DNA from: a virus
Virus record (IMG/VR): IMGVR_UViG_3300044814_000017
Span: 6,209-70,208 of that record
Strand: one strand, 5' to 3'
Length of the DNA stretch: 64,000 nucleotides
Both the position numbers and the translations under genes were made by a program. How positions within the stretch are numbered: the first letter of the stretch is position 1; each line of letters starts with the position of its first letter. Below the pieces are notes generated by a model. That model made no database searches. It was not told the DNA's origin and saw only the letters and a list, made by a program, of their open reading frames with translations. Of this stretch, positions 16,756-62,696 are shown piece by piece.

Positions 16756-17208
16756 ATGACCTCCCCCACCCTCCTATCCCTGGCAGGCAGAGTAGAATCT
16801 CTGACGGGGCGCGATCGGAATATTGCGAACGACGTCCTGTACGCGTGCGGTTGGACGACGCATGAAATCGGTGAAGGTGATAATCGCACCACGATTTGGA
16901 CAGCGCCGCGTGGCGAAGAGTTTACTGACGGCGATCAACCCGACCCGACCGCCTCACTCGACGCCGCGATGACGCTGGTGCCGGAAGGCTGGGGCTGGAG
17001 CGTTGGCGATGTTCATGGGCCGCTAGAAGCATATTCTGGCAGCAGCGTACCTTGGGCTGAGATTTGGACCCGCGATGATCGCGACGTTCAAATCCCCGAC
17101 ATGAACTGGGATGGTTGCCGCAACCATCTTAATGCCGCCACGCCTGCGCTCGCACTAACCGCCGCTTCCCTCCGCGCCCGCTCCGCATTGGAGGCCAGTC
17201 ATGGGTAA
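16756..17208 (+). CDS. Phage hypothetical protein
   Basis: TASLDAAMTLVPEGW and AATPALALTAASLRAR, patterns common in alphaproteobacterial phage small proteins. Confidence 0.75.
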   Translation: MTSPTLLSLAGRVESLTGRDRNIANDVLYACGWTTHEIGEGDNRTTIWTAPRGEEFTDGDQPDPTASLDAAMTLVPEGWGWSVGDVHGPLEAYSGSSVPWAEIWTRDDRDVQIPDMNWDGCRNHLNAATPALALTAASLRARSALEASHG

Positions 17209-18298
17209 GGTGTTGACCTACAAATATCGCATTAAAGACCGGGGCACCCGTAAGGCGCTGCGACGGCATGCGATAGGCATCAATCAGGTCTGGAACTACC
17301 TCAACGGTTACCAGCGCGATATCGAGGAGCGCTATAAGGCCGGCAGGCCTAGCCGCAGATGGCCCAACCATTTTGACCTGACCGGCATGGTGTCCGGCGT
17401 TTCCAAAGAGCTTGAGGTTTCTTCCATCTCTATTGGAGAGGTCTGCCGCACCTATGTGCAGAGCCGGAACGCCAACAAGCGCTCGTTACGCTTCCGGTCC
17501 AGCTTCGGTGCCCGAAGGTCACTCGGTTGGATACCGTTCCGCCGCCCGACTACGGATGGCAACAGCATCACTTACTTGGGAAAGAAATATCGTTTCTTTG
17601 GAGCGAAACGTCGCCCGGTTCCTAATGTCATTAAGACCGGCGCGTTTGTCGAGGACGCGCGAGGCCGCTGGTACGTCTGCTTTACGGTCGAGGTGCCAGA
17701 GCTTCCCGCGGGCGTCGGAGCGATCGGCATAGACCTTGGTCTCAAGACGCTGGCGACCCTCAGCAACGGGGAAACCGTTCCGGCCCTCCAACACTACCGT
17801 CGATACCAGGACGCGCTAGCGACCGCCCAGCGGGCCGGGAATAAGCGTCGGGTATCCGCCATTCACGCTAAGATCGCGAACGCGCGCCGCGATCATATCC
17901 ACAAGGCGACCACCAAGATTGCGCGCGAAAACCGTTTGATCGTCGTCGGCGATGTGAACGCGGCTCAGCTTAAGCAGACCAAGATGACGAAGTCCGTCTC
18001 GGATGCAAGCTGGACGATGTTCCGTAAAATGCTTGAATACAAAGCCAGTAGGCACCAAGCAATTTACGTTGAAGCCGACGAACGATTCACTTCCGTAACC
18101 TGTTCTGAGTGCGGTGCGCTCAGTGGCCCGAAAGGTCAAAAAGGGTTGCGAATAAGACAGTGGGAATGCTCGGACTGCGGAGCGTCGCATGATCGCGACG
18201 TGAACGCAGCCCGAAATATCCTACGTGTCGGGCAAAGCACTTTGCCTCATGCAGATGAAAGCCGGGCGTTCCGGATAGGTGCGACTCATGCCGGATAG
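17201..18298 (+). CDS. tnpB: TnpB-family RNA-guided nuclease, no tnpA adjacent
   Basis: TYKYRI N-terminus, IGIDLGLKTLA (RuvC-I), CSECG/CSDCG zinc finger, HDRDVNAARNI (RuvC-III). Confidence 0.93.
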   Translation: MGKVLTYKYRIKDRGTRKALRRHAIGINQVWNYLNGYQRDIEERYKAGRPSRRWPNHFDLTGMVSGVSKELEVSSISIGEVCRTYVQSRNANKRSLRFRSSFGARRSLGWIPFRRPTTDGNSITYLGKKYRFFGAKRRPVPNVIKTGAFVEDARGRWYVCFTVEVPELPAGVGAIGIDLGLKTLATLSNGETVPALQHYRRYQDALATAQRAGNKRRVSAIHAKIANARRDHIHKATTKIARENRLIVVGDVNAAQLKQTKMTKSVSDASWTMFRKMLEYKASRHQAIYVEADERFTSVTCSECGALSGPKGQKGLRIRQWECSDCGASHDRDVNAARNILRVGQSTLPHADESRAFRIGATHAG

Positions 18299-20022: not shown

Positions 20023-21047
20023 CCAACTCTCACCCACCCCGCCCGAACCCCGACGCACTCGACATCCTCAAGACGGCTCGCTCTCGAATCCATGCAATGA
20101 AAGTCGCGCCGTGCTCGGGGCTCGCCAGCAGCCGCAAGGCCGCTGAAGAATTGGAGGAAGCGCTGGATTACCTCGCCAGCGAGCGAGATGAATGGAAATC
20201 GCGGTGCGTCTCGCTTGATGATCTAAGACGTGAACAGCAAGCGGACGTTGAGAGCTTGCAGGCAGTAGTCGCCGCTCATCAGTCAAGCCGTGATGCCGCA
20301 GAGGGCGCGGCCGAATATGAAACTGGCGACGAAATCGTTTTTCTTGACAGCAGCGGTGAGCAGCACAGGGTCGTTTACAATCTTACTGAAGATCAGTCCG
20401 GTCTTGGCAGTGGATGGTTCGTTCACCCGGACGATCCGTTCGAGGACGCCCCACCGAAGCCAGCGCCTGATGCCCCGGGACATACCGATTTAATGGTCAC
20501 ACCAGAAAGCCTAGATGCTTGGCTGGAGAAAAATCCGTTGCCCGCGCCTGATGCGATGCGGGGGGCGCTGGAGCGGTTGCTCGCTGCATTCAAGGGACTG
20601 CAGCCGTTTCCTTTAATTGTACAGGCCGTGGCGGAAGGTTTGATCCGCGATGCTGAAGCCGCCCTCTCCGCACCCGCGCCGTCACCCTATGGGGCAGGCA
20701 ACGCGCTGAAAATATACGTCGATGGAATGACGGCCGACAACTGGGCCGGTATGCGCCTTCGATGCGAACGGCAGTTAAACGAACTCACCGCAGCGCTACC
20801 AGATCAGGTTGTGGTGGACTCCATGCAATGGCTTGGTGGTGATTACCGACGCCTCCAAAAGTTTTGCGGCTTGAACTTTGGCCGAGCAGATGCCCACGAT
20901 GTGGCTTGGTTGGGACCGAACGACGGTGAGCAAGTGGTGATCTGGAATACAGCGCTGGATAAATGGCTGTGCTGCCCAAAAGGGCTTTGGATTGATCGAC
21001 ATCGCGATGGCGCTCTATTTCTTCGAACTCCGGAGCCTGGCGAATGA
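20019..21047 (+). CDS. Mosaic phage hypothetical protein
   Basis: 342 aa with Pro/Ala linkers separating short modules. Confidence 0.7.
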   Translation: MTNSHPPRPNPDALDILKTARSRIHAMKVAPCSGLASSRKAAEELEEALDYLASERDEWKSRCVSLDDLRREQQADVESLQAVVAAHQSSRDAAEGAAEYETGDEIVFLDSSGEQHRVVYNLTEDQSGLGSGWFVHPDDPFEDAPPKPAPDAPGHTDLMVTPESLDAWLEKNPLPAPDAMRGALERLLAAFKGLQPFPLIVQAVAEGLIRDAEAALSAPAPSPYGAGNALKIYVDGMTADNWAGMRLRCERQLNELTAALPDQVVVDSMQWLGGDYRRLQKFCGLNFGRADAHDVAWLGPNDGEQVVIWNTALDKWLCCPKGLWIDRHRDGALFLRTPEPGE

Positions 21048-21502
21048 TCCCATACCAGAACGCAACGAGCGGTCAAAAGGCGCGCGGCGAAATAACCAAA
21101 ATGCTGCAAGCCTTCGGCTGCGAATCTGTTGGGTTCATGGACGACTTCGCCGCGCGAACGGTCATCCTGGCATTCAAGCATCGCGGCCGTCCGGTGCAGC
21201 TCAGGGCGTCGGCGAAAGGATGGGCAACGCTCTACCTTAAAGAAAACCCGTGGTCGCCGCAACGGCGATCCACCAGACAACAATGGGAAAACTCTGCGCT
21301 AGAGCAGGGCCTTCTCGCCATCAACTCGATCTTGCGCGATTGGGTCAAGGGACAAATTACAGCAGTCGAGTGCGGTATTCTTTCGTTCGAATCCGTGTTC
21401 ATGCCGTACATGCTCACAAACGATGGCTGCACTGTCATCGAACGAATTTCCTCAATGGACCTATTGCCCGCGCCCGCCTCTACTGCCGGAGAGGTGGAAT
21501 GA
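21044..21502 (+). CDS. Conserved phage hypothetical protein
   Basis: ATGA-coupled; SILRDWVKGQITAVECG motif. Confidence 0.75.
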   Translation: MIPYQNATSGQKARGEITKMLQAFGCESVGFMDDFAARTVILAFKHRGRPVQLRASAKGWATLYLKENPWSPQRRSTRQQWENSALEQGLLAINSILRDWVKGQITAVECGILSFESVFMPYMLTNDGCTVIERISSMDLLPAPASTAGEVE

Positions 21503-21939
21503 CGGACAACGAACAAGAAATTATTGAGATTGCACGCGACCTTGTAGCACTTTGGGAAAGTCCTGCTATAAAAGGACTTGCGCGCTCGGATCGCAACGCG
21601 GCTATTGAAGATACGCGCAACGCTTTAATTCAGGCCTGTAGCTCAACGGTAGAGCCAAGCGCTCGTAACGCTTTGGTTGCTGGTTCGAGTCCAGCCGGGC
21701 CCACCAATGCCACTGTAGCTCAATCGGCAGAGCGGCGTCTTTGTAAGGCGAAGGTTGGAGGTTCGATTCCTCCCGGGGGCACCATTTATTTTGCGCTTCG
21801 CGATAGCGTTCTTGAGCAAGCAGCAAAGAACCTCGCGAAATGGTATCCAGAAAACAATAGCACGAATGCATTCTGCGCGGCTATTCGTTCGATGAAATCG
21901 CGTCCCTCCAGCTTGGCGGGGGATGAGCGGAATGGGTGA
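21499..21939 (+). CDS. Phage protein whose reading frame runs through two tRNA genes
   Basis: GAGGTGG RBS and ATGA overlap; open through 21632-21784; phage-like C-terminus RDSVLEQAAK...CAAIRSMK. Confidence 0.55.
   Translation: MTDNEQEIIEIARDLVALWESPAIKGLARSDRNAAIEDTRNALIQACSSTVEPSARNALVAGSSPAGPTNATVAQSAERRLCKAKVGGSIPPGGTIYFALRDSVLEQAAKNLAKWYPENNSTNAFCAAIRSMKSRPSSLAGDERNG
21632..21706 (+). tRNA. tRNA with CGT (Thr) anticodon on an Ile2/Met-like body
   Basis: TAGCTCAACGGTAGAGC D arm, AAGCG-CTCGTAA-CGCTT anticodon arm, GCTGG-TTCGAGT-CCAGC T arm, 3' ACCA; A1.C72 mismatch. Confidence 0.85.
21709..21784 (+). tRNA. tRNA-Thr(TGT), slightly degenerate
   Basis: GCCACTG/CGGGGGC acceptor with one mismatch, loop TTTGTAA, GGAGG-TTCGATT-CCTCC T arm, 3' ACCA. 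Confidence 0.85.
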
Positions 21940-22045
21940 GCGTGGATTCGGAGCGCCGCTTGAAGGCACCCATGTCATTAAGTTGATTGAACGAATGCGC
22001 CGCGAAGGGCCTCCGAAAATCAAACGAAAGGGAGCAAAATAGAAA

Positions 22046-22612
22046 ATGCCCCGTATATCCAAAGCCGAAGAAGCCTGGCCGGTTGCCAACATTGAGTGGC
22101 GCAAGACTGGCACACTCAAGCAATCCGCTGGTAACCCCAAGGATCACCCTCCGCAACAAGTTGATGAAATCGTAGCCTTAATCAAGGCGTTTGGCTGGAC
22201 GCAGCCCATCCTTGTTAACGAAAGGGACGAAATTATAGCTGGCCACGGCAGGGATTTGGCGGCAATCAAGATGAAGCTGCCACGTGAGCCCGTGATAGTT
22301 GCGCGGGGTTGGAGCCCAGCTCAGATATTGGCCTATCGGCTCGCCGATAACCTCGTCCCGACCAAAGCACCATGGAAGCCGGAATTCGTCTCAGCGGACC
22401 TTGCTGCGTTATCGGAGATGAATTTCGATATTCGGCCATTTGGTCTCGACAACATCGAAATACCGGAACTTGAGGCGATCATTCCTGTCGCACCCAAGTC
22501 AAACCGTTCAAAAACCACGATATTTGTGAGTGTGCTCAATCAAGATGTTGAGAAAGCTCGCAGGGTCATATCAGCGGCGCTGGACAAAGCGCGTTTGGGG
22601 CATAATTTATGA
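22046..22612 (+). CDS. ParB/Srx-domain protein
   Basis: NPKDHP..QV..I..FGWTQPILV...IIAGHGR...AYRLADN. Confidence 0.9.
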   Translation: MPRISKAEEAWPVANIEWRKTGTLKQSAGNPKDHPPQQVDEIVALIKAFGWTQPILVNERDEIIAGHGRDLAAIKMKLPREPVIVARGWSPAQILAYRLADNLVPTKAPWKPEFVSADLAALSEMNFDIRPFGLDNIEIPELEAIIPVAPKSNRSKTTIFVSVLNQDVEKARRVISAALDKARLGHNL

Positions 22613-22870
22613 AACACCCACCGTTCTTTTGCATGAAAACACTTATGGGCTTTGGTGGCCAAGATTTGAACCGCATTACGCTGAACTGCCCAGACGGCTC
22701 GGAATTCGTCTTAATGGAACTCGGCGAGGCTCGCACTGAGAAGGCTAACTACCGCGCCAATGAACTCGCAACCCATCTCTCTGCTCTCTGGGCCAAAACC
22801 GCACCAGCGCCCTCCCCAGCCCTATAGGGAGGCTATTGGGAGCGCGTCAAACCAGTGATAAGCTGAGGGA

Positions 22871-23422
22871 ATGCCCGCTTTTACGAACCCGCGCTGGGAA
22901 AAAGCCTGTCAAGCTCGTGCCGCAGGCACTGAGATTGCCGCCAGCTACGCGCATGGCGGCTTTGTCAGCAAACCTGCTGCCGCAACTAGGTTTTTCAAAC
23001 GCCCAGATATCCGCGCTCGTGTGGATGAAATAATCCAACAGCGTTATGACGGAGAGCACAAAGCCCGTGAAATCGCTACGAAAAAGGCTGGTTTGGAGGA
23101 GTCGTGGATTATTGAGCGGACCAAGTATGTTGCGGAGATTGCGATACGTGGCACGCCGATATTGGACGCGCAGGGCAGACCTACTGGCGGGTTTAGCGGC
23201 AAGCCTAATTTGCGGGCTGCGGTGTCGGCGCTGGCGTTATTAAGTGATTTCAAAGGGATGCGCATCCACCGGCTTGAGTTGGGCGCGCCAGGCGACTTTG
23301 CCCGCATGTCTGATCAAGAGTTGGATGATTCGCTGGTAGAGCAGGCGCGGAAGATCGGGCTTCCCGAGCAGGCCGTGACGCGGTTGCTGGAACTTCGGGC
23401 GAACGAGCCGGCGGCGGAATAG
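22871..23422 (+). CDS. terS: Terminase small subunit
   Basis: N-terminal HTH-like pattern (ASYAHGGF...AAATRF...IRARVDE); upstream of terL. Confidence 0.7.
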   Translation: MPAFTNPRWEKACQARAAGTEIAASYAHGGFVSKPAAATRFFKRPDIRARVDEIIQQRYDGEHKAREIATKKAGLEESWIIERTKYVAEIAIRGTPILDAQGRPTGGFSGKPNLRAAVSALALLSDFKGMRIHRLELGAPGDFARMSDQELDDSLVEQARKIGLPEQAVTRLLELRANEPAAE

Positions 23423-24537: not shown

Positions 24538-26244
24538 ATGAACCACCATGTACCGCGAGAAGATATAGAGCGCTTCACCGCACAGCTAGCCGAGAAGCGC
24601 CGCCGCATGGCGAAGCAGGAGCACTCCCGTCGGGGCTATCGGGATGAAAACGGCGTGTGGCAAGGCGGGTTGTTGGCGTTTGTGCGGTACTTCTGGCATG
24701 TGCTGGAGCCGGGCACGCCGTTCACTGAAGGGTGGATTTTGGAAGCTATTGTAGAGCACCTAGAAGCTGTCACTTTTGGTGAGATAACAAATCTCTTGGT
24801 CAATGTACCCCCGGGCTGCTGCAAAAGTCTTTTGACGAATGTCTACTGGCCGGCGTGGGAGTGGAGCGCAATGGAGCTTTCACATATTCGCTATGTGACG
24901 TTCTCCTACAGCGCCAGCAATACAGAGCGGGACAATCAGCGCTTTGGCGATCTCGTTACGTCGTCCGAATTTCAACTCATGTATCCAGAGGTGAAGATTC
25001 GTCAGAACGGAATGACGATGGTTTCCAACTATAACCACGGTTGGAAATTGGCGTCGTCAGTCACAGGCAGCGCTACCGGAAAAAGAGGCAATCGGGCGAT
25101 TTGTGACGATTTGAATAACGTGAAAGAGAGCGAATCAAAGCCTGTCATGGAAGAAACTAATAGGTGGCTGAGGGAGTCGCTATCCTCACGCCTCAACAAT
25201 ATGGAGACCGATGCGAAGATCGTTATCGCCCAACGTGTAGGGGAGGGGGATGCCTCGGGCGAGATTTTGTCTCTTGGCTTGCCGTATTGCCACCTCTGCA
25301 TTGCGATGGAGTACGTTTGGAGCGCCGACGAAAACGGGCAGCCATATGCGACACAGATAGGGTGGGTTGATCCGCGCTGGCGACCGACGCCGGAAGAGTG
25401 CAACGGCGAGTTGGCGTGGCATGAAAGATTTTCTGAAAATGCCGTTCGCGCTCTAAAGAAAGAGCTTGGCCCCTACGCAACCGCAGCGCAGCTCCAACAA
25501 ACCCCTGAGGCACGCGGTGGCGGCATATTCAAGCGTGATTGGTGGCAAGTATGGGACCCGCCAGATGGGAAATTTCCACCGTTCTCATACATCGTGGCAT
25601 CCCTTGACGGCGCATTTACCTCCAAAGAGGAAAATGACCCTTCGGCTCTCACGGTGTGGGGTATTTTTGAAAACGAGATGGGCTACAACCGGGCCATGCT
25701 GATTCACGCATGGAGCAAGAAGCTTCCGTTTTCTGGCGTGAAAGTGGATGTCTTGCCCGGCGAGCATGATTCCGTATACCGCAGGCGCGCAATGCCGCAT
25801 TGGGGCTTGATCGAATGGGTTGCCGATACCTGCAACCGCTTCAAGGCTGATAGACTGTTGATTGAAAATAAAGGACCAGGCATTTCGGCGGCCCAATCGT
25901 TGAGTAATTCGCACGGGCGCTCTGGATGGGCTATTGAATTGGTCGAACCAAAAGGCGATCACACAGCCCGCGCCCTTGCGGTACAGCCGACGTTCTCTCA
26001 ACTCATGGTGCATGCGCCTGACCGGGAATGGGCTGACGATACGATTGATGAAATGGCTGTGTTCCCCAAGGGTAGGCACGATGACCGGGTAGATTCCGCC
26101 ACCCAAGCCATCAAGCACTTACGCGACAATGGCATTCTGCGGTCTGATGAGGAGCGACGCGCAGAGGAAATCGAAGCAGTGACGCACAAGGGTAAGCAGA
26201 TGCAGAAGCGGCCGCGATATCCCGGCATGCGGGCTACTGGCTAG
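24538..26244 (+). CDS. terL: Terminase large subunit
   Basis: VNVPPGCCKS Walker A variant, ICDD Walker B, QLQQTP, SLDGA, IENKGPG, FPKGRHDDRVDS nuclease motifs. Confidence 0.95.
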   Translation: MNHHVPREDIERFTAQLAEKRRRMAKQEHSRRGYRDENGVWQGGLLAFVRYFWHVLEPGTPFTEGWILEAIVEHLEAVTFGEITNLLVNVPPGCCKSLLTNVYWPAWEWSAMELSHIRYVTFSYSASNTERDNQRFGDLVTSSEFQLMYPEVKIRQNGMTMVSNYNHGWKLASSVTGSATGKRGNRAICDDLNNVKESESKPVMEETNRWLRESLSSRLNNMETDAKIVIAQRVGEGDASGEILSLGLPYCHLCIAMEYVWSADENGQPYATQIGWVDPRWRPTPEECNGELAWHERFSENAVRALKKELGPYATAAQLQQTPEARGGGIFKRDWWQVWDPPDGKFPPFSYIVASLDGAFTSKEENDPSALTVWGIFENEMGYNRAMLIHAWSKKLPFSGVKVDVLPGEHDSVYRRRAMPHWGLIEWVADTCNRFKADRLLIENKGPGISAAQSLSNSHGRSGWAIELVEPKGDHTARALAVQPTFSQLMVHAPDREWADDTIDEMAVFPKGRHDDRVDSATQAIKHLRDNGILRSDEERRAEEIEAVTHKGKQMQKRPRYPGMRATG

Positions 26245-41931: not shown

Positions 41932-43065
41932 ATGAAGGCGATGAATTCCAAGCTGACCATTGATGCCGTGAGGGATGCGCTGGATTTTGATCCAGCCATT
42001 GGCGTCTTTGTGTGGCGTAATCCGCAATCCAATGCTGTGCAATCTGGGGAGGCCGCTGGCGTCATCGCCGCGAACGGGCGGCGCTACATCAACATCGGCG
42101 GTGAGAAGCATATGGCTCACCGGCTGGCATGGTTCTACATCCATGGAACATGGCCGTCCGGTGATGTGAAGCAACCCAATGGTGATTACGATGATTGCCG
42201 CGAGACCAATCTCGTTCTGCAAACGCGCCAAGAGACCGCCTCCAATCGTAGGGTGAATGCAGCCAGCAAGAGCGGGTATCCGGGGGTTAGTTGGGATTCG
42301 AAACGAAACCGTTGGCAGGCTCACATTACTCAGAATTACAAGCAGGTTGCGCTCGGTAACTTCAAAGAATTGGAGGACGCTATTGCTGCGCGCAAGGAGG
42401 CTGAGCAATCGCTGGTCTTAAGCGTTTCCGATGCCGACAAAGAAAAGGCCGCACATGCAATCTCGCGCCGTCGTCGGCAGCGCACCGCATGGACGCGGCT
42501 AATAGTCTTGGGTCAGCCGTTGGGGTGGGTGTCACTGGATGAATTTTGCAGAGATATCGGCGATATCCCGGAAACCAGAACCACCATTGTAGCGGTGGAT
42601 GCATCTCTTCCCATTGGCCCCGGCAACTTCCGATGGTCTCTACCTCTGGACAAGAAGTACGACTTCCAGACTAGGGATGGACGTATTGCGCATGGACGCG
42701 ATCATCGCAAGGCGAACCCTGATATTTATCGCGAACGCGAACTGCGCAAGAGTTTCGGTATCGGGATAGACGATTACAACGCCACGCTAGAGGCGCAAGG
42801 CGGCGTGTGTGCCATTTGCGAGCGTCCAGAGCGCGCTATGCGCGATGGGGAGCCTATACATCTCGCTCAAGACCATGATCATGCCACGATGAAGAATCGT
42901 GGCATTCTCTGTGGCAACTGCAACAAGGCGTTAGGCAAGTTCGAGGATAATCCCGACTTCTTGCGCAACGCCATTGTGTATCTCGCCAAGCATTCGTCGC
43001 CAGACGCGTTTGTGTGTGATGTGGCCGATGCTGACTGGTACACTGCGCCGATGGTTGGGACGTAA
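41932..43065 (+). CDS. Free-standing homing endonuclease: degenerate HNH + AP2 + degenerate HNH + endonuclease VII
   Basis: AHRLAWFY, SGYPGVSW..RWQAHI, CAIC...QDHDH...RGILCGNCNKALG. Confidence 0.85.
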   Translation: MKAMNSKLTIDAVRDALDFDPAIGVFVWRNPQSNAVQSGEAAGVIAANGRRYINIGGEKHMAHRLAWFYIHGTWPSGDVKQPNGDYDDCRETNLVLQTRQETASNRRVNAASKSGYPGVSWDSKRNRWQAHITQNYKQVALGNFKELEDAIAARKEAEQSLVLSVSDADKEKAAHAISRRRRQRTAWTRLIVLGQPLGWVSLDEFCRDIGDIPETRTTIVAVDASLPIGPGNFRWSLPLDKKYDFQTRDGRIAHGRDHRKANPDIYRERELRKSFGIGIDDYNATLEAQGGVCAICERPERAMRDGEPIHLAQDHDHATMKNRGILCGNCNKALGKFEDNPDFLRNAIVYLAKHSSPDAFVCDVADADWYTAPMVGT

Positions 43066-56988: not shown

Positions 56989-59850
56989 TTGGGAAAAGGG
57001 TCGCAGACTACTACAAATCAAACATCGTCATCCGCTGACCCGCAGGCCGCACAAGCCTATCGCGATCTTCTGACCCGTGCGCAAGGCGTGGCATCGACGC
57101 CATATCAGGCCTACACGGGCGAGCTAACTGCTCCGGTCAACGCCCAGCAACAGTTAGGCATCGGCAACATTAATCAAAATGCCAATTTCGCGCAGCCGTT
57201 TGTACAGCAGGCGGCAGGAATTGCATCTGGAGCGGCGAATCCACTAACGCAGCAACAAATCCAGCAATACCAGAATCCTTATACGCAGAATGTTGTTGAC
57301 GCGACGCAGGCGCAGTTCAATCGGAACAATGCGCAGCAGCAGGAGGCGTTAAAGGGCAACCAGATCGCTTCTGGGGCGTTCGGAGGCAACCGGAACGGCA
57401 TTGGTGCGGCGAATCTATCGAGCCAACAGGCGACGCAGCAAAATCCAATCATCGCGGGGCTGTATTCCAATTCCTATAATCAGGGTGTGGCTACAGCCGG
57501 ACAGCAGTTCCAGCAGAATCCGCTTGCGGCGGGGAATGCCATTGCGAATTTTGGCTTATCTGGACAGGGTGCCGCGCTGTCTGGCGCTGGGGCACAACTC
57601 GGGGCTGGCACGCTGCAGCAGCAGACGCAGCAGCAGGCCGATACGGCGAGATATGGCCAATATGCGCAAGGACAGGCCTTTCCGTATCAGCAGGCTCAAT
57701 GGCTCGCCGGCATTGGTACTGGCGTGGGTTCGCAATTGGGCGGCACGTCCAGCGGTTCAACCACGGGGCCGGCTCCGAATCAATTCGCGCAATACGCTGG
57801 GGCTGGTCTGGCGGCGGCAGGGCTTTTCCTCAATCGCGGTGGACGTGTCGGCTATGCTGATGGCGGCGGCGTGGTGCCGATGCACATGGCGGATGGCGGC
57901 ATGCCGGGAACGCCATGGTCGCAAGGCGTCGGCTGGATTCCGCAGATGAATATCCATCCGGGGTCCGGTGCCCCGAAGGGAGTTGCCCCGTCTTTGCAGA
58001 ACCCGCAGTCCAATTTCGATCCGGTCAAGTTCGCGCAGGGAATTACCGGGCTTGGTACTAAGGGCGGTTCGGATGGATGGGGCAACCGAATAGGGTCATA
58101 TTTCAATCCAGATGCCTATGGCGGCGGGAATGGAGTTTACGGCGGGTCGAGTTCTAGCCCGTTGGCTGGCCTTGATGCGTCGGATTATGGGGCCGGATAT
58201 GCCCATGGTGGCGGTGTGGCGGCGGGCTACGCGGGCGGCGGTGCTCCCGACGACGTGATGAGCGGCGACCCGTCATGGACTTATCCGGACGTGGGAATGG
58301 GTTATCCCCAGCATGGCGTTGGCCCTATCTCGTTCAATGAACGGGCTGAACCTGTGCGGCAAGCCATTGCCGGTGGCAATTTTGACCCCATGGGGGGCAA
58401 TTCCACTGAATTTCGCGGAACTCGGGGGATGGAAACCGCCAATGCTGGCGTAGTCCCCCTTCCGAATGCCCGCCCCAAGGGCATAGGAGCGCCTGCGGTG
58501 GCTGAGGACGATGAGGAGGGAGGTGTACCTCCCCCAGCCGTTCGCAGCGCTGGCGTGGCTCCTGCGGGCGGCGTAGCGGCCTTTGCACCTGAGGGGGTTG
58601 GTTCCTATCGAAACATGCCGGACGCTGTTACTCGTCCTCAGGACAAGTCCGGCTTTGGGCTGGGCGTTTTGGCCCCGAATACCAAAACCGGCTTACTCGC
58701 CGCTGGCCTAGGCATGCTGGCGTCCAGGTCTCCGAACCTCGGCAACGCGATCGGGGAAGGCGGTATTGCTGGCGTGACGGCCTACGGCAATGCCAACGAG
58801 GCAGACCGCAAGGCTATCGCGGAGGCGGAAAAGTTATCCCGCGAGGCGTGGAAAACGTCGGAGGATTTGCGGTTGCGCGGTGCGACGCAGGCGGAAACTG
58901 GACGCCATAATTTGGCTACCGAAAAACAAGCTGTCATCAGTTCGGACAAGACAAAATTCATTCCGGCTGGATCAACCATTACCGCTGATGGGGCCTATCA
59001 TCCGCTGGTGCTTGATCAGGCGTCCGGCAAAGTTATCGACGCCGTTACCGGCAAAGCGCCAAATGCTGGTGACAAGGTTCAACCGAAAGACCAGAAGGGC
59101 GGTCCAATTAGTGACGAGGACGCCAAGTCGATTGCTGAATACTACGTCAAGACAGGCGACAATTCGCGGTTGAACGGTCTCGGCATCACGAGCGCGGCAC
59201 GGCAGGCGGTCCAGAAGCAAATTCGCGAAACGATGGACCGCGAGAAGGTTTCGCCTGAGGAAATGGGAACGCGCGTTGCGGAGTTTGCGGGCCGGAAAGC
59301 TGGCCAGCGTACTCTTAGCGTTCAGGAAGCCAAAATGGGCAGTGCGGCGTTCGAAGCAGAGGGCGCAATCAAGCAGGCCCGTGGCGTTATCGAAAGGTTG
59401 CCGCGCACTTCATTCTTGCCGCTTAACCAGTTGATCGAAGGATACAGCAACAAAACGCTCAATCCAGATCAGACAGAACTTTATGGACGTACTCAGGCCA
59501 TCGTAAACACTTACGCTGCGGTGATGGCACGCGGCTCTAACATCACGACCGTTTCTGCACAAAATCACGCTGAGAACTTGCTGAAAACGGCTGGTAATCC
59601 GGAGACGTTTAACCGCATGCTCGATACGATGCTGCAGGAAATTAATATGGCGAAACACTCCCCAGCAAAAATGCGGGAGTTTTATCGTCAACAGTATGGC
59701 GAGAAAGCCGTTGCGCCGGATGGCGGCTCTGCACCCGCCGCAGCAAGTGGTTTCACCCCCCCGCCCGGTGCGCTCCCCGGCAAGCCCGACCAAAACGGAA
59801 AGGTCTGGTACTATGATCCCGCCACCAAACAACCGTATCCGGGGCAGTGA
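56989..59850 (+). CDS. Internal virion / DNA ejection protein
   Basis: MGKGSQTT start, YQNPYTQNVV, GAFGGNR, Gln/Gly/Ala-rich, five GG motifs. Confidence 0.8.
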   Translation: MGKGSQTTTNQTSSSADPQAAQAYRDLLTRAQGVASTPYQAYTGELTAPVNAQQQLGIGNINQNANFAQPFVQQAAGIASGAANPLTQQQIQQYQNPYTQNVVDATQAQFNRNNAQQQEALKGNQIASGAFGGNRNGIGAANLSSQQATQQNPIIAGLYSNSYNQGVATAGQQFQQNPLAAGNAIANFGLSGQGAALSGAGAQLGAGTLQQQTQQQADTARYGQYAQGQAFPYQQAQWLAGIGTGVGSQLGGTSSGSTTGPAPNQFAQYAGAGLAAAGLFLNRGGRVGYADGGGVVPMHMADGGMPGTPWSQGVGWIPQMNIHPGSGAPKGVAPSLQNPQSNFDPVKFAQGITGLGTKGGSDGWGNRIGSYFNPDAYGGGNGVYGGSSSSPLAGLDASDYGAGYAHGGGVAAGYAGGGAPDDVMSGDPSWTYPDVGMGYPQHGVGPISFNERAEPVRQAIAGGNFDPMGGNSTEFRGTRGMETANAGVVPLPNARPKGIGAPAVAEDDEEGGVPPPAVRSAGVAPAGGVAAFAPEGVGSYRNMPDAVTRPQDKSGFGLGVLAPNTKTGLLAAGLGMLASRSPNLGNAIGEGGIAGVTAYGNANEADRKAIAEAEKLSREAWKTSEDLRLRGATQAETGRHNLATEKQAVISSDKTKFIPAGSTITADGAYHPLVLDQASGKVIDAVTGKAPNAGDKVQPKDQKGGPISDEDAKSIAEYYVKTGDNSRLNGLGITSAARQAVQKQIRETMDREKVSPEEMGTRVAEFAGRKAGQRTLSVQEAKMGSAAFEAEGAIKQARGVIERLPRTSFLPLNQLIEGYSNKTLNPDQTELYGRTQAIVNTYAAVMARGSNITTVSAQNHAENLLKTAGNPETFNRMLDTMLQEINMAKHSPAKMREFYRQQYGEKAVAPDGGSAPAAASGFTPPPGALPGKPDQNGKVWYYDPATKQPYPGQ

Positions 59851-62696
59851 TGAAACATCATGCGCCCGGCATATCGCAGCGGTTCCTAAAGTTGATCGCC
59901 TATGATCCGCTTGCAGGATTGTCTCGACCAAAGAAGCGCCGTGCGGATGGCGGTCGCGTAAGTCTTGCCGAGCAAATCGTCGAGCAGGCTAAGGCCGTTG
60001 ATACTGATCCGAGCGAAGGCCAGAAGATCGCAGGAAACTACAAAAAGGGGCATGTGAAGGTTCATGGCCTTGATATCTCAATTGAGAACCCGCGCGGGTC
60101 ATATCGAAGCGGAGTTGCTGATGGCAAGCCGTGGAAATCTCGCCTCCCGAATCACTATGGTTATCTCAGGAAAACGGAAGGCGGCGATGGACAGCACGTT
60201 GATGTCTATTTGGGACCGCACCTGAAAAGCCCGCATGTATTTGTGATTGACCAGCATGAACTAGGGTCTGGTCTGTGGGATGAGCATAAATGCCTCATCG
60301 GTTTTGGCAGTAAGACGCAGGCCCGTGAGGCGTATCATCGCGCATTCTCGGATGGGAAAGGGAAAGACCGTATCGGCCATATCGAGACGATGACGGTGGA
60401 TGGATTCAAATCGTGGCTACGCGATGGGGACACTACTAAGCCCGTCAAAGGCCATCGCGAACGCTTTGCTGCTGGCGGTGCTGTTGATGAGCCTGAGCCG
60501 ATGGCTGGCGGCGGTGCTCCTCCCTATGAACCGCCAGATGCGGAAGGACCGCCGCCGTATGAACCGGCCCAACCAGACATGGGCGGCATGAAGGCCGCAT
60601 GGCAGGGTGCAAAATCTGGTGCCACGTTCAATTTTAGCGATGAAATTGCTGGGGCGCGCGGTGCGGCTCCGAAAATACCAGGCACGGATAGGGACATCCC
60701 TGAATTTATTGGCCCCATTCCGGCACGCACTATCGCTGGCGCGGGTCGTCTTGGCCTTAACGCCATCACCGGCAACGACCATGAAGCCGTAGCCGCATAT
60801 GAGAGAGCGCGCGACGAGGAGCGCGCTGCGAATGAATTGGCCCAAAAGCAACATCCGTATTTGCATGGGGCTGGTCAAATCGCCGGATCACTTCCTGCTA
60901 TGGCCATATTACCGGAGTTAGGTGCAGCACGTGCGCTTGCGCCAACGGCTGGGCGTCTCGCCAAGTTTGGAGCCACGGTTGCCGATTCTGCCGCTTTGGG
61001 TGGTGAGTACGGAGCGCTATCTGGTGCTGGAGAGGGCAAGGATGTGGGCGACCGTGCCATGCATGCCGCAGAGGGTATCGTTTCCGGAATCGTTGGGGGT
61101 GCCGCAGCGCCAGTAGTAGGGGCTGGCGCTGGTGCGGCATACGATAAGTTCGGCAAACCAATCGTGGGTGCTGTACGAGGTTGGGTTAACCCCGAGGCTG
61201 AAGCAGCGCGGCGCTTGGCGACTGCGTTGCGGGCTGATCAAGAATTGATTGCGCAGGGCAAGGCGCAAGGCATGTCGTCGCAGGAATGGACTGCGGCACG
61301 TCAAGCCGGCGAACCCGTGACCTTAGCCGAACTCGGATCAAGCAATACGCAGGCGCTGTTACGGTCTGCTGCGAATACGTCTCCTGAGGGACGCGCGATG
61401 CTTGAGAAAGTAATCAACGATCGGTTCGCGGGGCAGTCCGAGCGGGTCGCCGAAGACGTGCGAGGGTTGGTCGCGGGCGGCGCCAATGCCCATAAGACCG
61501 GAGATCAGCTAATTGCCGAATATGACCGCGCTCGGGTGCCCGCCTATAAACAGGCGTACCGGGATGGCGATAGGGAAATCATTTCACCTGCGATAGAGCG
61601 GTTGATGGGTAGCCCTTTGTTCGAGGGGGCTATGAAATCGGCCGTTACCAGCGGTAAAGACCGCGCTGTTATGGAAGGATATGGCGCGTTCAATCCGGGC
61701 GTGAGTGTTGAAAACGGCATGATCAAATTCTCCAATACCAAGCCGAACGGCGTGCCGGTTTACCCAAACCTGCAGTACTGGGATGCGGTCAAGAAAGAGC
61801 TTGATGGCGTAGCCTCAATGGCAAGGCGCTCCGGAGACCCCAAAGGCGACGTTGCAGCCAATATGTCAAAGGTACTGCGAGGTGAATTAGACCAAGCCGT
61901 GCCGTCCTACGGCAACGCCAGGGGTATTGCGGCGCAATATTTCGGTGAAAGCAACGCGCTTGAGGCAGGACAGAAACTCGCCGGCAAGAAGGTTGATCCA
62001 AAAGTTATTCGCGATGTTATGGCGAAGATGAAACCGGATGAGCGGGAATTGTTTCGCGAGGGGTATGCCTCGGATTGGGCCGGCCGCGTAATCGGCAACA
62101 TCAGCGAAAGCCGCGATATCACCAAGGCGATGTTCAATTCTCCGAACGAGCGGGCTAGAGCAATGGCTGTGTTTGGTCCCGGTGGCATGGCGAAGATGGA
62201 AGCGCGGATGTCCTTGGAAACCATCATGGATGGTGCTCGCAAGGCGATGGGGAATTCTACCACGGCACGGCAATTGATTGAGGCTGGATTGGCTGGGGGC
62301 GCTATTGAAGGGTACATGACCGGCGATTGGCATAGTGCCGCTACACACGGGATCATGGGGGGTCTTGCTGGGGCGGGGCTTGGGCATAGTGCGATGGCAC
62401 GTGGTGCCGTAGGGCAAGTGGCAGCAGGAGCAAGCAAGTTGATTGGCAAGGTCAATGGCAAGATGGCCGCCCATGTCGCCGAACTGCTTACGTCGAATGA
62501 CCCCACCAAACTCCAGCAAGGCTTACGGATGGCGCAGAAAAATCAGAAGATTGCGGACGGTCTTCGTGATATAGCTAACCGGATGGCACTCGCTGGGCAG
62601 ACAAAGGCCATCCCTCACTTCAATATGTCGGGATGGTCTGGTAGCATACCAGCACACGGCGAAGATCAGCAGCAGGCTCCAAGGATAGTCCAATAG
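59847..62696 (+). CDS. Internal virion protein with N-terminal inorganic pyrophosphatase-like domain
   Basis: QKIAGNYKKGH, IENPRGS.RSG, HYGY, DGQHVDV, DEHK; Ala/Gly-rich helical remainder. Confidence 0.85.
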   Translation: MMKHHAPGISQRFLKLIAYDPLAGLSRPKKRRADGGRVSLAEQIVEQAKAVDTDPSEGQKIAGNYKKGHVKVHGLDISIENPRGSYRSGVADGKPWKSRLPNHYGYLRKTEGGDGQHVDVYLGPHLKSPHVFVIDQHELGSGLWDEHKCLIGFGSKTQAREAYHRAFSDGKGKDRIGHIETMTVDGFKSWLRDGDTTKPVKGHRERFAAGGAVDEPEPMAGGGAPPYEPPDAEGPPPYEPAQPDMGGMKAAWQGAKSGATFNFSDEIAGARGAAPKIPGTDRDIPEFIGPIPARTIAGAGRLGLNAITGNDHEAVAAYERARDEERAANELAQKQHPYLHGAGQIAGSLPAMAILPELGAARALAPTAGRLAKFGATVADSAALGGEYGALSGAGEGKDVGDRAMHAAEGIVSGIVGGAAAPVVGAGAGAAYDKFGKPIVGAVRGWVNPEAEAARRLATALRADQELIAQGKAQGMSSQEWTAARQAGEPVTLAELGSSNTQALLRSAANTSPEGRAMLEKVINDRFAGQSERVAEDVRGLVAGGANAHKTGDQLIAEYDRARVPAYKQAYRDGDREIISPAIERLMGSPLFEGAMKSAVTSGKDRAVMEGYGAFNPGVSVENGMIKFSNTKPNGVPVYPNLQYWDAVKKELDGVASMARRSGDPKGDVAANMSKVLRGELDQAVPSYGNARGIAAQYFGESNALEAGQKLAGKKVDPKVIRDVMAKMKPDERELFREGYASDWAGRVIGNISESRDITKAMFNSPNERARAMAVFGPGGMAKMEARMSLETIMDGARKAMGNSTTARQLIEAGLAGGAIEGYMTGDWHSAATHGIMGGLAGAGLGHSAMARGAVGQVAAGASKLIGKVNGKMAAHVAELLTSNDPTKLQQGLRMAQKNQKIADGLRDIANRMALAGQTKAIPHFNMSGWSGSIPAHGEDQQQAPRIVQ

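Follow-up and report, generated by a model that had tools for sequence, protein, structure and literature searches.

A single phage gene in the viral DNA analysed here (a stretch of 64,000 nucleotides, referred to as the window) appears to consist of two small conserved protein modules connected by a linker, and this linker is a tRNA gene cassette. We consider it moderately probable that the gene has a dual use, with a transcript that would either be translated through the tRNAs or be cut to release them. Since the two ends of the ORF are conserved as protein, one stretch of DNA seems to function both as tRNA genes and as a protein linker. In phages or bacteria, such in-frame nesting of tRNAs is highly uncommon. 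The evidence is comparative and comes from metagenomes: the full DNA of the gene was available from the window and one other locus (L012, which encodes the protein P0003) plus a few short-read contigs, and the other 10 relatives are predicted proteins.

Organization of the locus and its tRNA genes

The tRNA-bearing ORF extends without a stop from ATG 21499 to TGA 21937–21939 on the plus strand and would encode 146 aa. It lies between a gene of unassigned function and the packaging module, in the following arrangement:

21044–21502, plus strand: upstream gene of 152 aa (phrog_17260, function unassigned), whose TGA overlaps ATG 21499 (ATGA)
21488–21498, plus strand: purine-rich, Shine-Dalgarno-like stretch (GGAG/GGTGG) directly 5' of ATG 21499
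21499–21939, plus strand: stop-free ORF across both tRNAs, with the relatives P0001–P0010, P0045 and L012
21499–21630, plus strand: N module, ~42 aa, conserved, predicted two-helix (alignments A1/A2)
21632–21706, plus strand: tRNA1, 75 nt, anticodon CGT (Thr by anticodon), read in frame 3
21707–21708, plus strand: 2-nt spacer between tRNA1 and tRNA2, which brings their open frames into register
21709–21784, plus strand: tRNA2, 76 nt, tRNA-Thr(TGT), read in frame 1
21784–21936, plus strand: C module, from the ATT codon whose A ends the CCA of tRNA2
21923–22042, plus strand: small downstream ORF of 39 aa (ATG 21923) or 36 aa (ATG 21932), overlapping the end of the tRNA-bearing ORF
22046–22612, plus strand: ParB-like nuclease/partition-type gene, which opens the packaging module
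22871–23422 and 24538–26244: TerS and TerL of the packaging module (matches in the ParB-like gene and this module: phrog_620, 2e-32; phrog_11494; phrog_38, 5e-74)

Exactly two tRNA genes were detected by ARAGORN in the entire window, both on the plus strand, 2 nt apart and with an encoded CCA. Their Rfam RF00005 scores were 62.5 bits for tRNA1 and 60.1 bits for tRNA2, compared with a gathering score of 29. These results agree with the first-pass annotation, which had described two tandem same-strand tRNAs of 75–76 nt with CCA; its further observations that the tRNAs lie inside a stop-free ORF with a ribosome binding site and an ATGA overlap, and that the tRNA block (21632–21784) measures 153 nt, a multiple of three, were confirmed from the sequence. 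Both anticodon loops have 7 nt with U33 (CUCGUAA and UUUGUAA, respectively), and the T-loops read UUCGAGU and UUCGAUU. By sequence and structure, both tRNAs are bona fide.

Each acceptor stem contains one non-standard pair, A1.C72 in tRNA1 and A4.G69 in tRNA2, and tRNA2 of the window also has G27.A43. The acceptor-stem mismatches noted earlier are thus present in both tRNAs, but by themselves they are not evidence of tRNA decay; tRNA2 of L012 has A4-U69 at the place of the A4.G69 in the window. The codon at the tRNA1 anticodon encodes His, not Arg, in P0001, P0005, P0013, and P0014, which implies CAT or CAC in these relatives. Because of the 1:72 mismatch and an anticodon unlike that of the relatives, tRNA1 of the window may be non-functional. 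Soil contigs carry a G>A change at 21665 within tRNA1. A thermodynamic fold of the single sequence 21600–21820 gave no signal (z = −0.81), and an Rfam match to YrlA at 21651–21768 (33.2 bits versus a gathering score of 69) was rejected as a by-product of two adjacent tRNAs. A DNA search of the phage database returned 128 records, all of which matched the tRNA block only (4% of the query), and contained no relative of the tRNA-bearing gene.

A sigma-70-like promoter was not found in 20800–22900, and neither of the two terminator-like sites (22193–22206 on the plus strand and 22065–22048 on the minus strand) adjoins the tRNAs, which are therefore probably carried on the operon transcript. A look-up of RNA sequencing runs containing the stretch returned none. 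Relatives of the upstream gene occur in nine viral contigs (64–77% identity), none of which has the tRNA-bearing ORF. The 10 viral loci retrieved through this gene (L001–L010) contain no tRNA and neither of the two flanks (best tblastn E value 0.73) and thus cannot show what the gene looks like without the insert. The small downstream ORF matched no Pfam or PHROG family.

Selection on the flanks, the reading frame and tRNA2

Compared with L012, the N flank differs at 2, 1, and 14 places in the first, second, and third codon position, respectively, with 12 synonymous and 3 non-synonymous codons and a dN/dS of 0.039. The corresponding values for the C flank are 9, 7, and 23 differences and 16 synonymous versus 10 non-synonymous codons (dN 0.225, dS saturated). 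When the two shifted frames were compared with L012, the counts of synonymous and non-synonymous changes were 1/15, 5/23, 1/16, and 1/26, and stop codons appeared. Third codon positions also account for 15 of the 18 differing places listed in the flanks of the soil contigs. As judged from these substitution patterns, purifying selection acts on the protein sequence that both flanks encode in the frame of the ORF. The codon-position signal, together with homologues of the C flank, bears out the earlier impression of protein-like sequence on both sides of the tRNAs.

The N module is homologous to 15 other proteins or loci, and it is located directly 5' of tRNAs in 12 of the 16 distinct sequences that carry it. 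Contig searches with the N module confirmed 0 of 143 candidates in genomes, 1 of 44 in viral contigs, and 4 of 190 in metagenomes. The first-pass annotation had proposed a comparison of flank homologues with and without the insert; the former are represented by 11 relatives with tRNA-like segments, but an uninterrupted N+C protein lacking tRNAs was not found among 15 matches spanning 80–256 aa, a range into which a form of ~95 aa would fall. Neither module belongs to a Pfam or PHROG family, and the best scores for their function in an Atlas feature search (0.87 and 0.82) were below the meaningful level. An AF2 model of the ORF product, which was used for the layout of the secondary structure only, places helices at residues 3–20, 29–48, 94–115, and 120–133 and none at 49–93 (mean pLDDT 49.6, low confidence).

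For the C module (WYPDN..TNAFCAAIRSMK type), 30 matches with E ≤ 1e-3 were obtained among 1.84 billion representatives. These are mostly proteins of 49–114 aa with the module at the C end, and the phmmer matches P0017–P0044 share 53–77% identity over the module, a conserved segment of ~35 aa that is located C-terminally, or nearly so, in small phage or prophage proteins. The single match to the C module in a genome is a Pseudolabrys prophage. An own start upstream of the C module is present in all five other loci inspected (L016–L020, four distinct sequences) but not in the window or L012. The window has no in-frame ATG, GTG, or TTG after tRNA2 until codon 132; in L012, the single in-frame start-type codon of this region is a TTG at codon 89, which is situated inside the module and is not common to the window. 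A separate, non-canonical start of the C module is possible, because the ATT codon 21784–21786 at the junction of tRNA2 and the C module aligns with the initiator methionine (Met1) of the stand-alone proteins P0024 and P0042. The Ile-Tyr right after the tRNA is invariant in 7/7 aligned sequences, and a G-rich stretch, which reads GGGGG in the window and GGTGG in L012, precedes the ATT by 4 nt. An A/U-rich site for 3' processing would be an equally good reading of the invariant ATTTAT.

tRNA1 is stop-free in the third frame only and tRNA2 in the first frame only, and exactly these frames are used by the ORF. The 153-nt block is open in just one of the three frames, which is the frame of both flanking coding segments, because the 2-nt spacer puts tRNA1 and tRNA2 in register. 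Read-through without a stop is seen in every one of the 11 relatives in which the N module is followed by tRNA-like segments (P0001–P0010 and P0045), which due to common ancestry are not independent trials, and the N module never ends before the tRNA (11/11). The underlying protein search favours open frames, and an additional search at shorter lengths, in which none of four candidates among proteins of 30–79 aa was an early-stopping form, removes this bias only in part, as very short ORFs can escape gene callers. The same database does contain spurious ORFs that run across tRNA arrays (P0015, perhaps also P0013 and P0014).

The number of tRNAs in the cassettes of the relatives is one, two, or three, and a single tRNA can be accompanied by a remnant. 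After the tRNAs, the C module follows in P0001–P0004 and partly in P0005 and P0006; P0007–P0010 have other tails, and P0045 continues with 166 other residues. L012 carries the same gene next to unrelated genes; ATGA overlaps are present at both of its ends there too, and a 57-nt internal deletion of tRNA1 has left 18 nt as an in-frame linker. One soil contig has 83 other letters instead of 74 nt of tRNA1, a net gain of 9 nt that retains the frame. Frame-breaking changes in relatives, which the first-pass annotation had named as evidence against its reading, were not found, and on this comparison no relative has lost the frame although tRNAs have been gained, lost, and swapped.

tRNA2 of the window is 93.4% identical to that of L012, compared with 82.5% and 67.2% for the flanks. 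Its differences at the three codon positions (0, 3, and 2) lack a third-position bias, and its dN/dS is 0.58 with both terms low. In the stems, forced two-sided changes keep the pairs 29:41, 49:65, and 50:64 in P0005, P0006, and P0045; these changes were deduced from amino acids, as 10 relatives are known as predicted proteins only. P0006 also implies one broken pair (31:39), the T-loop stays canonical, and tRNA2 is the one member of the cassette that every relative has. This pattern indicates that tRNA2 is constrained as RNA, with a cloverleaf kept by compensatory change.

A proposed dual-use transcript and alternative readings

In the mechanism that we propose, the operon transcript would have two mutually exclusive fates. 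Ribosomes coupled to the upstream gene would start at ATG 21499 and cross the tRNAs in the sole stop-free frame, giving rise to a 146-aa protein in which the tRNA DNA encodes residues 45–95, probably a disordered linker. Alternatively, the tRNAs would fold, and RNase P and 3'-end nucleases would excise tRNA-Thr(UGU) and the second tRNA, whereby that copy of the message would be destroyed. The core of the dual-use idea of the first-pass annotation is supported by the selection on the flanks, the lack of a canonical start of the C module, the conserved frame, and the structured tRNA2; from these comparisons we infer that cells would make the full-length protein and also mature and charge the tRNAs, with the two fates in competition. 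Its other suggestion, according to which the tRNAs are being absorbed into a protein, applies to one clear case, the tRNA1 remnant in L012.

An annotation coincidence, with intergenic tRNAs that are stop-free by chance between untranslated flanks, appears very improbable. Gene finders do call ORFs across tRNA arrays, as in P0015, and the ORF itself has no Pfam or PHROG family, but the strong codon-position and dN/dS signal is found in both flanks in this frame only, homologues comprise 30 proteins for the C flank and 15 other proteins or loci for the N module, and a ribosome binding site with ATGA coupling recurs in two contexts. The tRNAs could also be relics of a cassette that once inserted into two small genes or joined them and that is now only a decaying protein linker. 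The in-frame remnant in L012 would fit this scenario, as would the A1.C72 pair of the window's tRNA1, its anticodon CGT in place of the CAT or CAC implied in relatives, the A4.G69 and G27.A43 pairs of tRNA2, and the broken pair of P0006. However, the much higher conservation of tRNA2 than of the coding flanks, without third-position bias, is not expected of a pure linker, compensatory changes at three of its pairs occur in relatives that are just 50–65% identical as protein, and the T-loop, U33, and CCA are intact in tRNAs that both reach twice the Rfam threshold. We therefore regard the relic scenario as unlikely, although it may be true of tRNA1 alone.

A low probability also applies to separate products, with a C module started at ATT 21784–21786, an N module that is a short peptide, and a common frame that is a historical accident. 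The alignment of the ATT with Met1 of two stand-alone proteins, the invariant Ile-Tyr and the G-rich stretch upstream would all be in line with such a start. Yet this ATT takes its A from the last base of the CCA, and the G-rich letters make up the 3' side of the acceptor stem; as both lie in tRNA2, tRNA maturation would remove them, and an unprocessed tRNA would hide them in a helix. Moreover, ATT start codons are rare in bacteria, the lack of an N-module stop in the 11 relatives means that upstream ribosomes would enter the C module in frame anyway, and the frame-keeping of the −57 and +9 nt indels and of all cassette variants would be left unexplained. Finally, read-through might have been selected so that ribosomes travel to the stop at 21939, so that the downstream genes stay translationally coupled and the transcript is protected against early termination or decay, and the fusion and its linker would be incidental. 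The ATGA-type overlaps at both gene ends in the two unrelated contexts (window and L012), the quite different but always in-frame sequences after the tRNAs of relatives, and the absence of a terminator-like site next to the tRNAs are compatible with this possibility, which differs from the dual-use reading in the target of selection and not in the mechanism. It is nonetheless quite improbable, because purifying selection on both modules as protein indicates that their products matter, and the C module would be made by read-through only.

Several other explanations were rejected. Excision and re-ligation of the tRNA as an intron would break the frame in L012, where the single tRNA has 76 nt. 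Stop completion by A-tailing, as in mitochondria, would yield no stop, since the 5' cut of tRNA1 leaves ...AUUC. Ordinary intercistronic tRNAs of an operon do not match the lack of a stop between the N module and tRNA1 and of an ATG, GTG, or TTG from tRNA2 to codon 132. A spurious ORF over RNA genes was dismissed on the basis of the N-flank dN/dS, the third-position excess, the 30 C-flank homologues and the kept frame. Programmed translational bypass of the phage T4 gene 60 type involves a stop right after the take-off codon and, past the gap, a landing codon that matches it, and there is no stop anywhere in frame in 21499–21936.

Extending the dual-use reading, we tentatively suggest, at less than even probability, a phage gene family with tRNAs obligatorily nested in frame, in which translation and maturation would compete for each transcript. 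Ribosome traffic would gate tRNA release, and processing would gate both the protein and the reach of early transcripts towards the packaging genes. The N module would then be a dedicated switch partner, and the linker a landing pad on which tRNAs are swapped in multiples of three bases.

Relation to known transcripts with tRNAs

tRNAs and coding sequences share one transcript in the thrU-tyrU-glyT-thrT-tufB operon of E. coli and in the tRNA region of phage T4, where RNase P and 3' nucleases set the tRNAs free. In such co-transcribed operons, no reading frame includes the tRNAs, and start and stop codons are present for each cistron, whereas here no stop precedes and no canonical start follows the tRNAs, and the tRNA DNA lies in frame within an ORF. 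One RNA serves as message and functional RNA in SgrS/SgrT, RNAIII/hld, and tmRNA, but their coding and RNA-function segments are largely separate, and the tRNA-like domain of tmRNA is untranslated. In the gene described here, the whole tRNA sequence would be translated, and tRNA production would destroy the message.

In mitochondria, tRNA punctuation sets the mRNA ends by cuts at tRNAs. Same-strand tRNA overlaps that need alternative processing are described for the mitochondria of Armadillidium vulgare (bioRxiv 10.1101/2025.11.12.688142). As would hold for the present gene, such overlapping genes cannot both be matured from one transcript copy; however, these overlaps are partial, occur in organelle genomes, and have stops completed by polyadenylation, in contrast to complete bacterial-type CCA tRNAs nested in frame. 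A full-text literature search, judged by titles and abstract openings and covering few subscription journals and no supplements, retrieved no account of a phage or bacterial ORF with a tRNA nested in its frame, and the accessible text of PMC8785237 contained nothing on tRNA/CDS overlap.

If the dual-use reading is true, ribosomes can also translate a complete bacterial-type tRNA into a segment of a protein, selection holds RNA structure and reading frame together, and the transcript chooses between message and tRNA precursor. The gene would then offer a natural system for a race between ribosome and RNase P on one RNA and, as illustrated by the remnant in L012, a route from tRNA sequence to protein sequence. 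When an ORF and a tRNA overlap, annotation practice regards this as an error, and one of the two is dropped by the gene finder or the curator; a true dual use would justify a second look at "spurious" ORFs called over tRNA arrays of phages. The ORF studied here resembles such a case, P0015, in its stop-free frame through consecutive tRNAs and in similar peptide strings. Unlike P0015, it has conserved flanks under purifying selection, coupling signals, and a frame that is kept across rearrangements of the cassette.

Two tRNA genes in an open reading frame

ARAGORN detected exactly two tRNAs in the window, which scored 62.5 (tRNA1) and 60.1 bits (tRNA2) against an Rfam threshold of 29. Both encode CCA, are separated by a 2-nt spacer and form a 153-nt block within a stop-free reading frame of 146 aa (ATG 21499 to TGA 21939), whose ATG overlaps the TGA of the upstream gene (21044–21502) and directly follows a purine-rich stretch. 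The tandem tRNAs within a coupled open frame described in the first-pass annotation were thus present in all their features according to ARAGORN, Rfam and frame reading; the ARAGORN check it had proposed returned both tRNA calls, and each tRNA has the claimed acceptor-stem mismatch as its one non-standard acceptor pair (A1.C72 in tRNA1, A4.G69 in tRNA2). The window belongs to a virus record; all its recognisable genes are encoded on the + strand, and the tRNA pair sits where accessory genes give way to packaging genes.

Features of the window
4–12 kb, +, replication module with RusA-like resolvase, helicase, methyltransferases and primase/helicase (family matches)
Between replication and packaging modules, +, accessory genes, including an IS-type transposase
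21499–21630, +, N module
21632–21706, +, tRNA1, anticodon CGT
21709–21784, +, tRNA2, anticodon TGT
21784–21936, +, C module
After the accessory genes, +, ParB-like, TerS, TerL, portal, head, tail-fibre and ejection genes

The transposase (17201–18298; phrog_506, 1.2e-69) is located in the phage accessory region and precedes the tRNA-bearing gene by approximately 3 kb. A 377-aa ORF (41932–43065), placed between the major head gene and the structural genes that come next, joins an HNH endonuclease part (residues 2–161) to an endonuclease VII part (253–358). Residues ~46–204 of a 949-aa virion protein (59847–62696) match parts of very large DarB-like, endolysin-like and minor-head proteins (phrog_10089, 938, 4660). 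A sub-threshold YrlA (Y RNA-like) match across the tRNA1/tRNA2 junction (21651–21768; 33.2 bits, gathering threshold 69, Rfam) probably merely mirrors the tRNA-like module of that family.

Coding signal of the flanks

tRNA1 is stop-free in its third frame only and tRNA2 in its first only, and the 2-nt spacer aligns them, which leaves the block with one open frame out of three. By itself this openness could arise by chance at odds of about 1 in 9 to 1 in 27; artefactual ORFs across tRNA arrays do exist (P0015, a protein match). The case therefore turns on the flanks.

A protein search yielded 15 matches among 83 candidates. Ten (P0001–P0010) carry a segment of ~42 aa at the N terminus that is followed directly by a tRNA-like peptide, two (P0011, P0012) are longer proteins without a tRNA that end in this segment, and in three (P0013–P0015) the similarity is limited to the tRNA-encoded part. 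To escape the bias of protein searches toward open frames, contigs were searched with the N module alone, using an alignment of 10 sequences (the window, P0001–P0007, P0011 and P0012) out of 13 then known to carry it. This yielded one viral (L011) and four metagenome loci (L012–L015) and no N module in genome_contigs. In L011, L013 and L014 (identical ORFs) and L015, the N module terminates a protein of ~100 aa, with a stop 8–9 codons on and no tRNA. L012, which encodes P0003, has a 113-aa ORF with an in-frame tRNA-Thr(TGT).

Between the window and L012, differences in the N flank were distributed 2/1/14 over the codon positions (12 synonymous versus 3 non-synonymous codon differences; dN 0.043, dS 1.11, ratio 0.039), and those in the C flank 9/7/23 (16 versus 10; dN 0.225, synonymous sites saturated). 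In the two shifted frames of the flanks this signal was gone (1/15, 5/23, 1/16 and 1/26) and stops were present. Two short-read contigs from soil cover 21499–21932 ungapped with 28 differences. Among the best-supported differing places listed for four soil runs, beyond which there were 73 further ones, 15 of 18 in the flanks were third positions, and two places lay in the 153-nt block. These patterns argue that the flanks of the tRNA block are protein-coding.

A HMMER search of 1.84 billion representatives with the C flank gave 30 matches at E ≤ 1e-3. Except for P0001 and P0016, an odd 750-aa repeat protein, these are small proteins, mostly of 49–114 aa; a few are longer, and one, P0031, includes a fused HNH domain. 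Their N termini vary, and their C-terminal module (WYPDN..TNAFCAAIRSMK type), for which neither Pfam nor PHROG has a model, is strongly conserved. This unnamed module of ~35 aa closes many small phage and prophage proteins with unrelated N termini (P0017–P0044; L016–L020). An alignment of 26 sequences (the window C flank and 25 of the 30 matches, omitting P0001, P0016, P0028, P0031 and P0043) retrieved five C-module loci with four distinct sequences (L016–L020). In all five, start codons in frame precede the module, and no tRNA occurs within 1.5 kb. The copy in the Pseudolabrys sp. Root1462 genome (L020) encodes a protein identical to that of viral contig L019.

In the window, the first codon of the C module overlaps the CCA of tRNA2, and the stretch from there to codon 132 is free of in-frame ATG, GTG and TTG. 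The sole in-frame candidate in L012, a TTG inside the module, is not shared with the window. Purifying selection has acted on the C module throughout the divergence of the window and L012, and its junction with the tRNA is alike in the two; on these sequence grounds it would have to be translated, and its sole canonical entry would be ATG 21499, through the tRNAs.

State and turnover of the tRNAs

For tRNA2, identity of the window with L012 reaches 93.4%, compared to 82.5% and 67.2% in the flanks. The tRNA2 differences (0/3/2 by codon position; dN and dS both low) point to RNA rather than protein constraint. Pair 4:69 is A4-U69 in L012 versus A4.G69 in the window, and the T-loop is canonical. 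Where a relative is known from its protein alone, each amino acid determines the first two codon bases; inferred in this way, two-sided forced changes in P0005, P0006 and P0045 preserve pairs 29:41, 49:65 and 50:64. Pair 31:39 is disrupted in P0006, and 27:43 does not pair, as in the window. At least tRNA2 thus seems to remain a tRNA.

The status of tRNA1 is less secure because of its 1:72 mismatch, a differing anticodon and its reduction to a remnant in L012. Its anticodon coincides with exactly one ORF codon (21664–21666, CGT), read as Arg in the predicted protein and denoting tRNA-Thr; ACG is the commonest Thr codon (40%) in the 46 + strand ORFs of ≥150 aa in the window, unfiltered for overlap. 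This codon reads His in P0001, P0005, P0013 and P0014, implying CAT or CAC, and the soil contigs have G>A at 21665. If the anticodon were CAT, the tRNA1 of these relatives would be of the Met/Ile2 type. In the window, tRNA1 seems to have switched its anticodon by a single base, or to have begun to decay.

tRNA content of the cassette
One tRNA: P0004, P0007–P0010
One tRNA and a remnant: P0003
Two tRNAs: window, P0001
Two tRNAs, the first one different: P0002, P0006
Three tRNAs: P0005

A search among longer proteins (one match of 813 candidates) added P0045, known as protein only, in which a Lar-like zinc ribbon (PF14354, precomputed) leads into the N module and two tRNA-like segments, with 166 more residues in frame after them. 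The frame stays open across the tRNA in all 11 relatives joining the N module to one. Among proteins of 30–79 aa, the size expected if the tRNA were out of frame, none of four candidates scored as an early-stopped N module. In L012, a clean 57-nt deletion removed nt 9–65 of tRNA1, and the 18-nt remnant (L012 3114–3135), made up of the first 8 and last 10 nt of tRNA1, is read in frame as linker, a concrete instance of tRNA sequence becoming protein sequence. One soil contig has 74 nt of tRNA1 swapped for 83 other letters (net +9). The surroundings of the L012 gene are unrelated to those in the window: its upstream ORF differs, an HNH endonuclease lies on the downstream side, and an integrase follows 1.1 kb beyond. 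Here too, however, ATGA overlaps tie the gene to both neighbours.

One transcript with two possible fates

We cautiously favour a reading in which one transcript would have two fates. Translation from 21499 across the tRNA sequences would yield a two-module protein with residues 45–95 as linker, or the tRNAs would be cut out and that copy of the message lost. A low-confidence AF2 model has helices on either side of residues 45–95 and nothing within. Neither a sigma-70-like promoter nor an adjoining terminator-like site was found around the tRNAs, which fits their dependence on the operon transcript. Were the transcript cut at the 5' end of tRNA1, the N-module message would lack a stop and the downstream fragment both RBS and start; for this reason processing and translation would be mutually exclusive per molecule.

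Among the alternatives, an independent start of the C module at ATT seems improbable: this codon aligns with Met1 of P0024 and P0042, but shares its A with the CCA, and the putative SD before it falls within the acceptor stem. We give equally little credence to the tRNAs being decaying relics; for tRNA1 this is plausible, whereas the tRNA2 data contradict it. That selection favours an unbroken flow of ribosomes, not the fusion, is slightly less probable still, and an annotation artefact is very improbable.

The favoured reading of one transcript with two fates is built on two DNA sequences and predicted proteins from metagenomes. The gene would work like a dual-function RNA, but would go beyond it in that the sequence of the RNA gene would itself serve as codons. 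It would likewise resemble a co-transcribed tRNA-mRNA operon, yet lacks the separate start and stop per cistron that define the latter. A tRNA nested in frame in this way is nowhere described for phages or bacteria in the literature portions returned by our search; in logic, the closest analogue is the overlap of tRNAs with other genes in mitochondria. In P0013 and P0014 (proteins only), a different upstream Cys-rich, HNH-like-looking protein runs in frame into three tRNA-like segments, and their tail resembles that following the C module in P0002; they could be a second family of the same arrangement or a spurious call.
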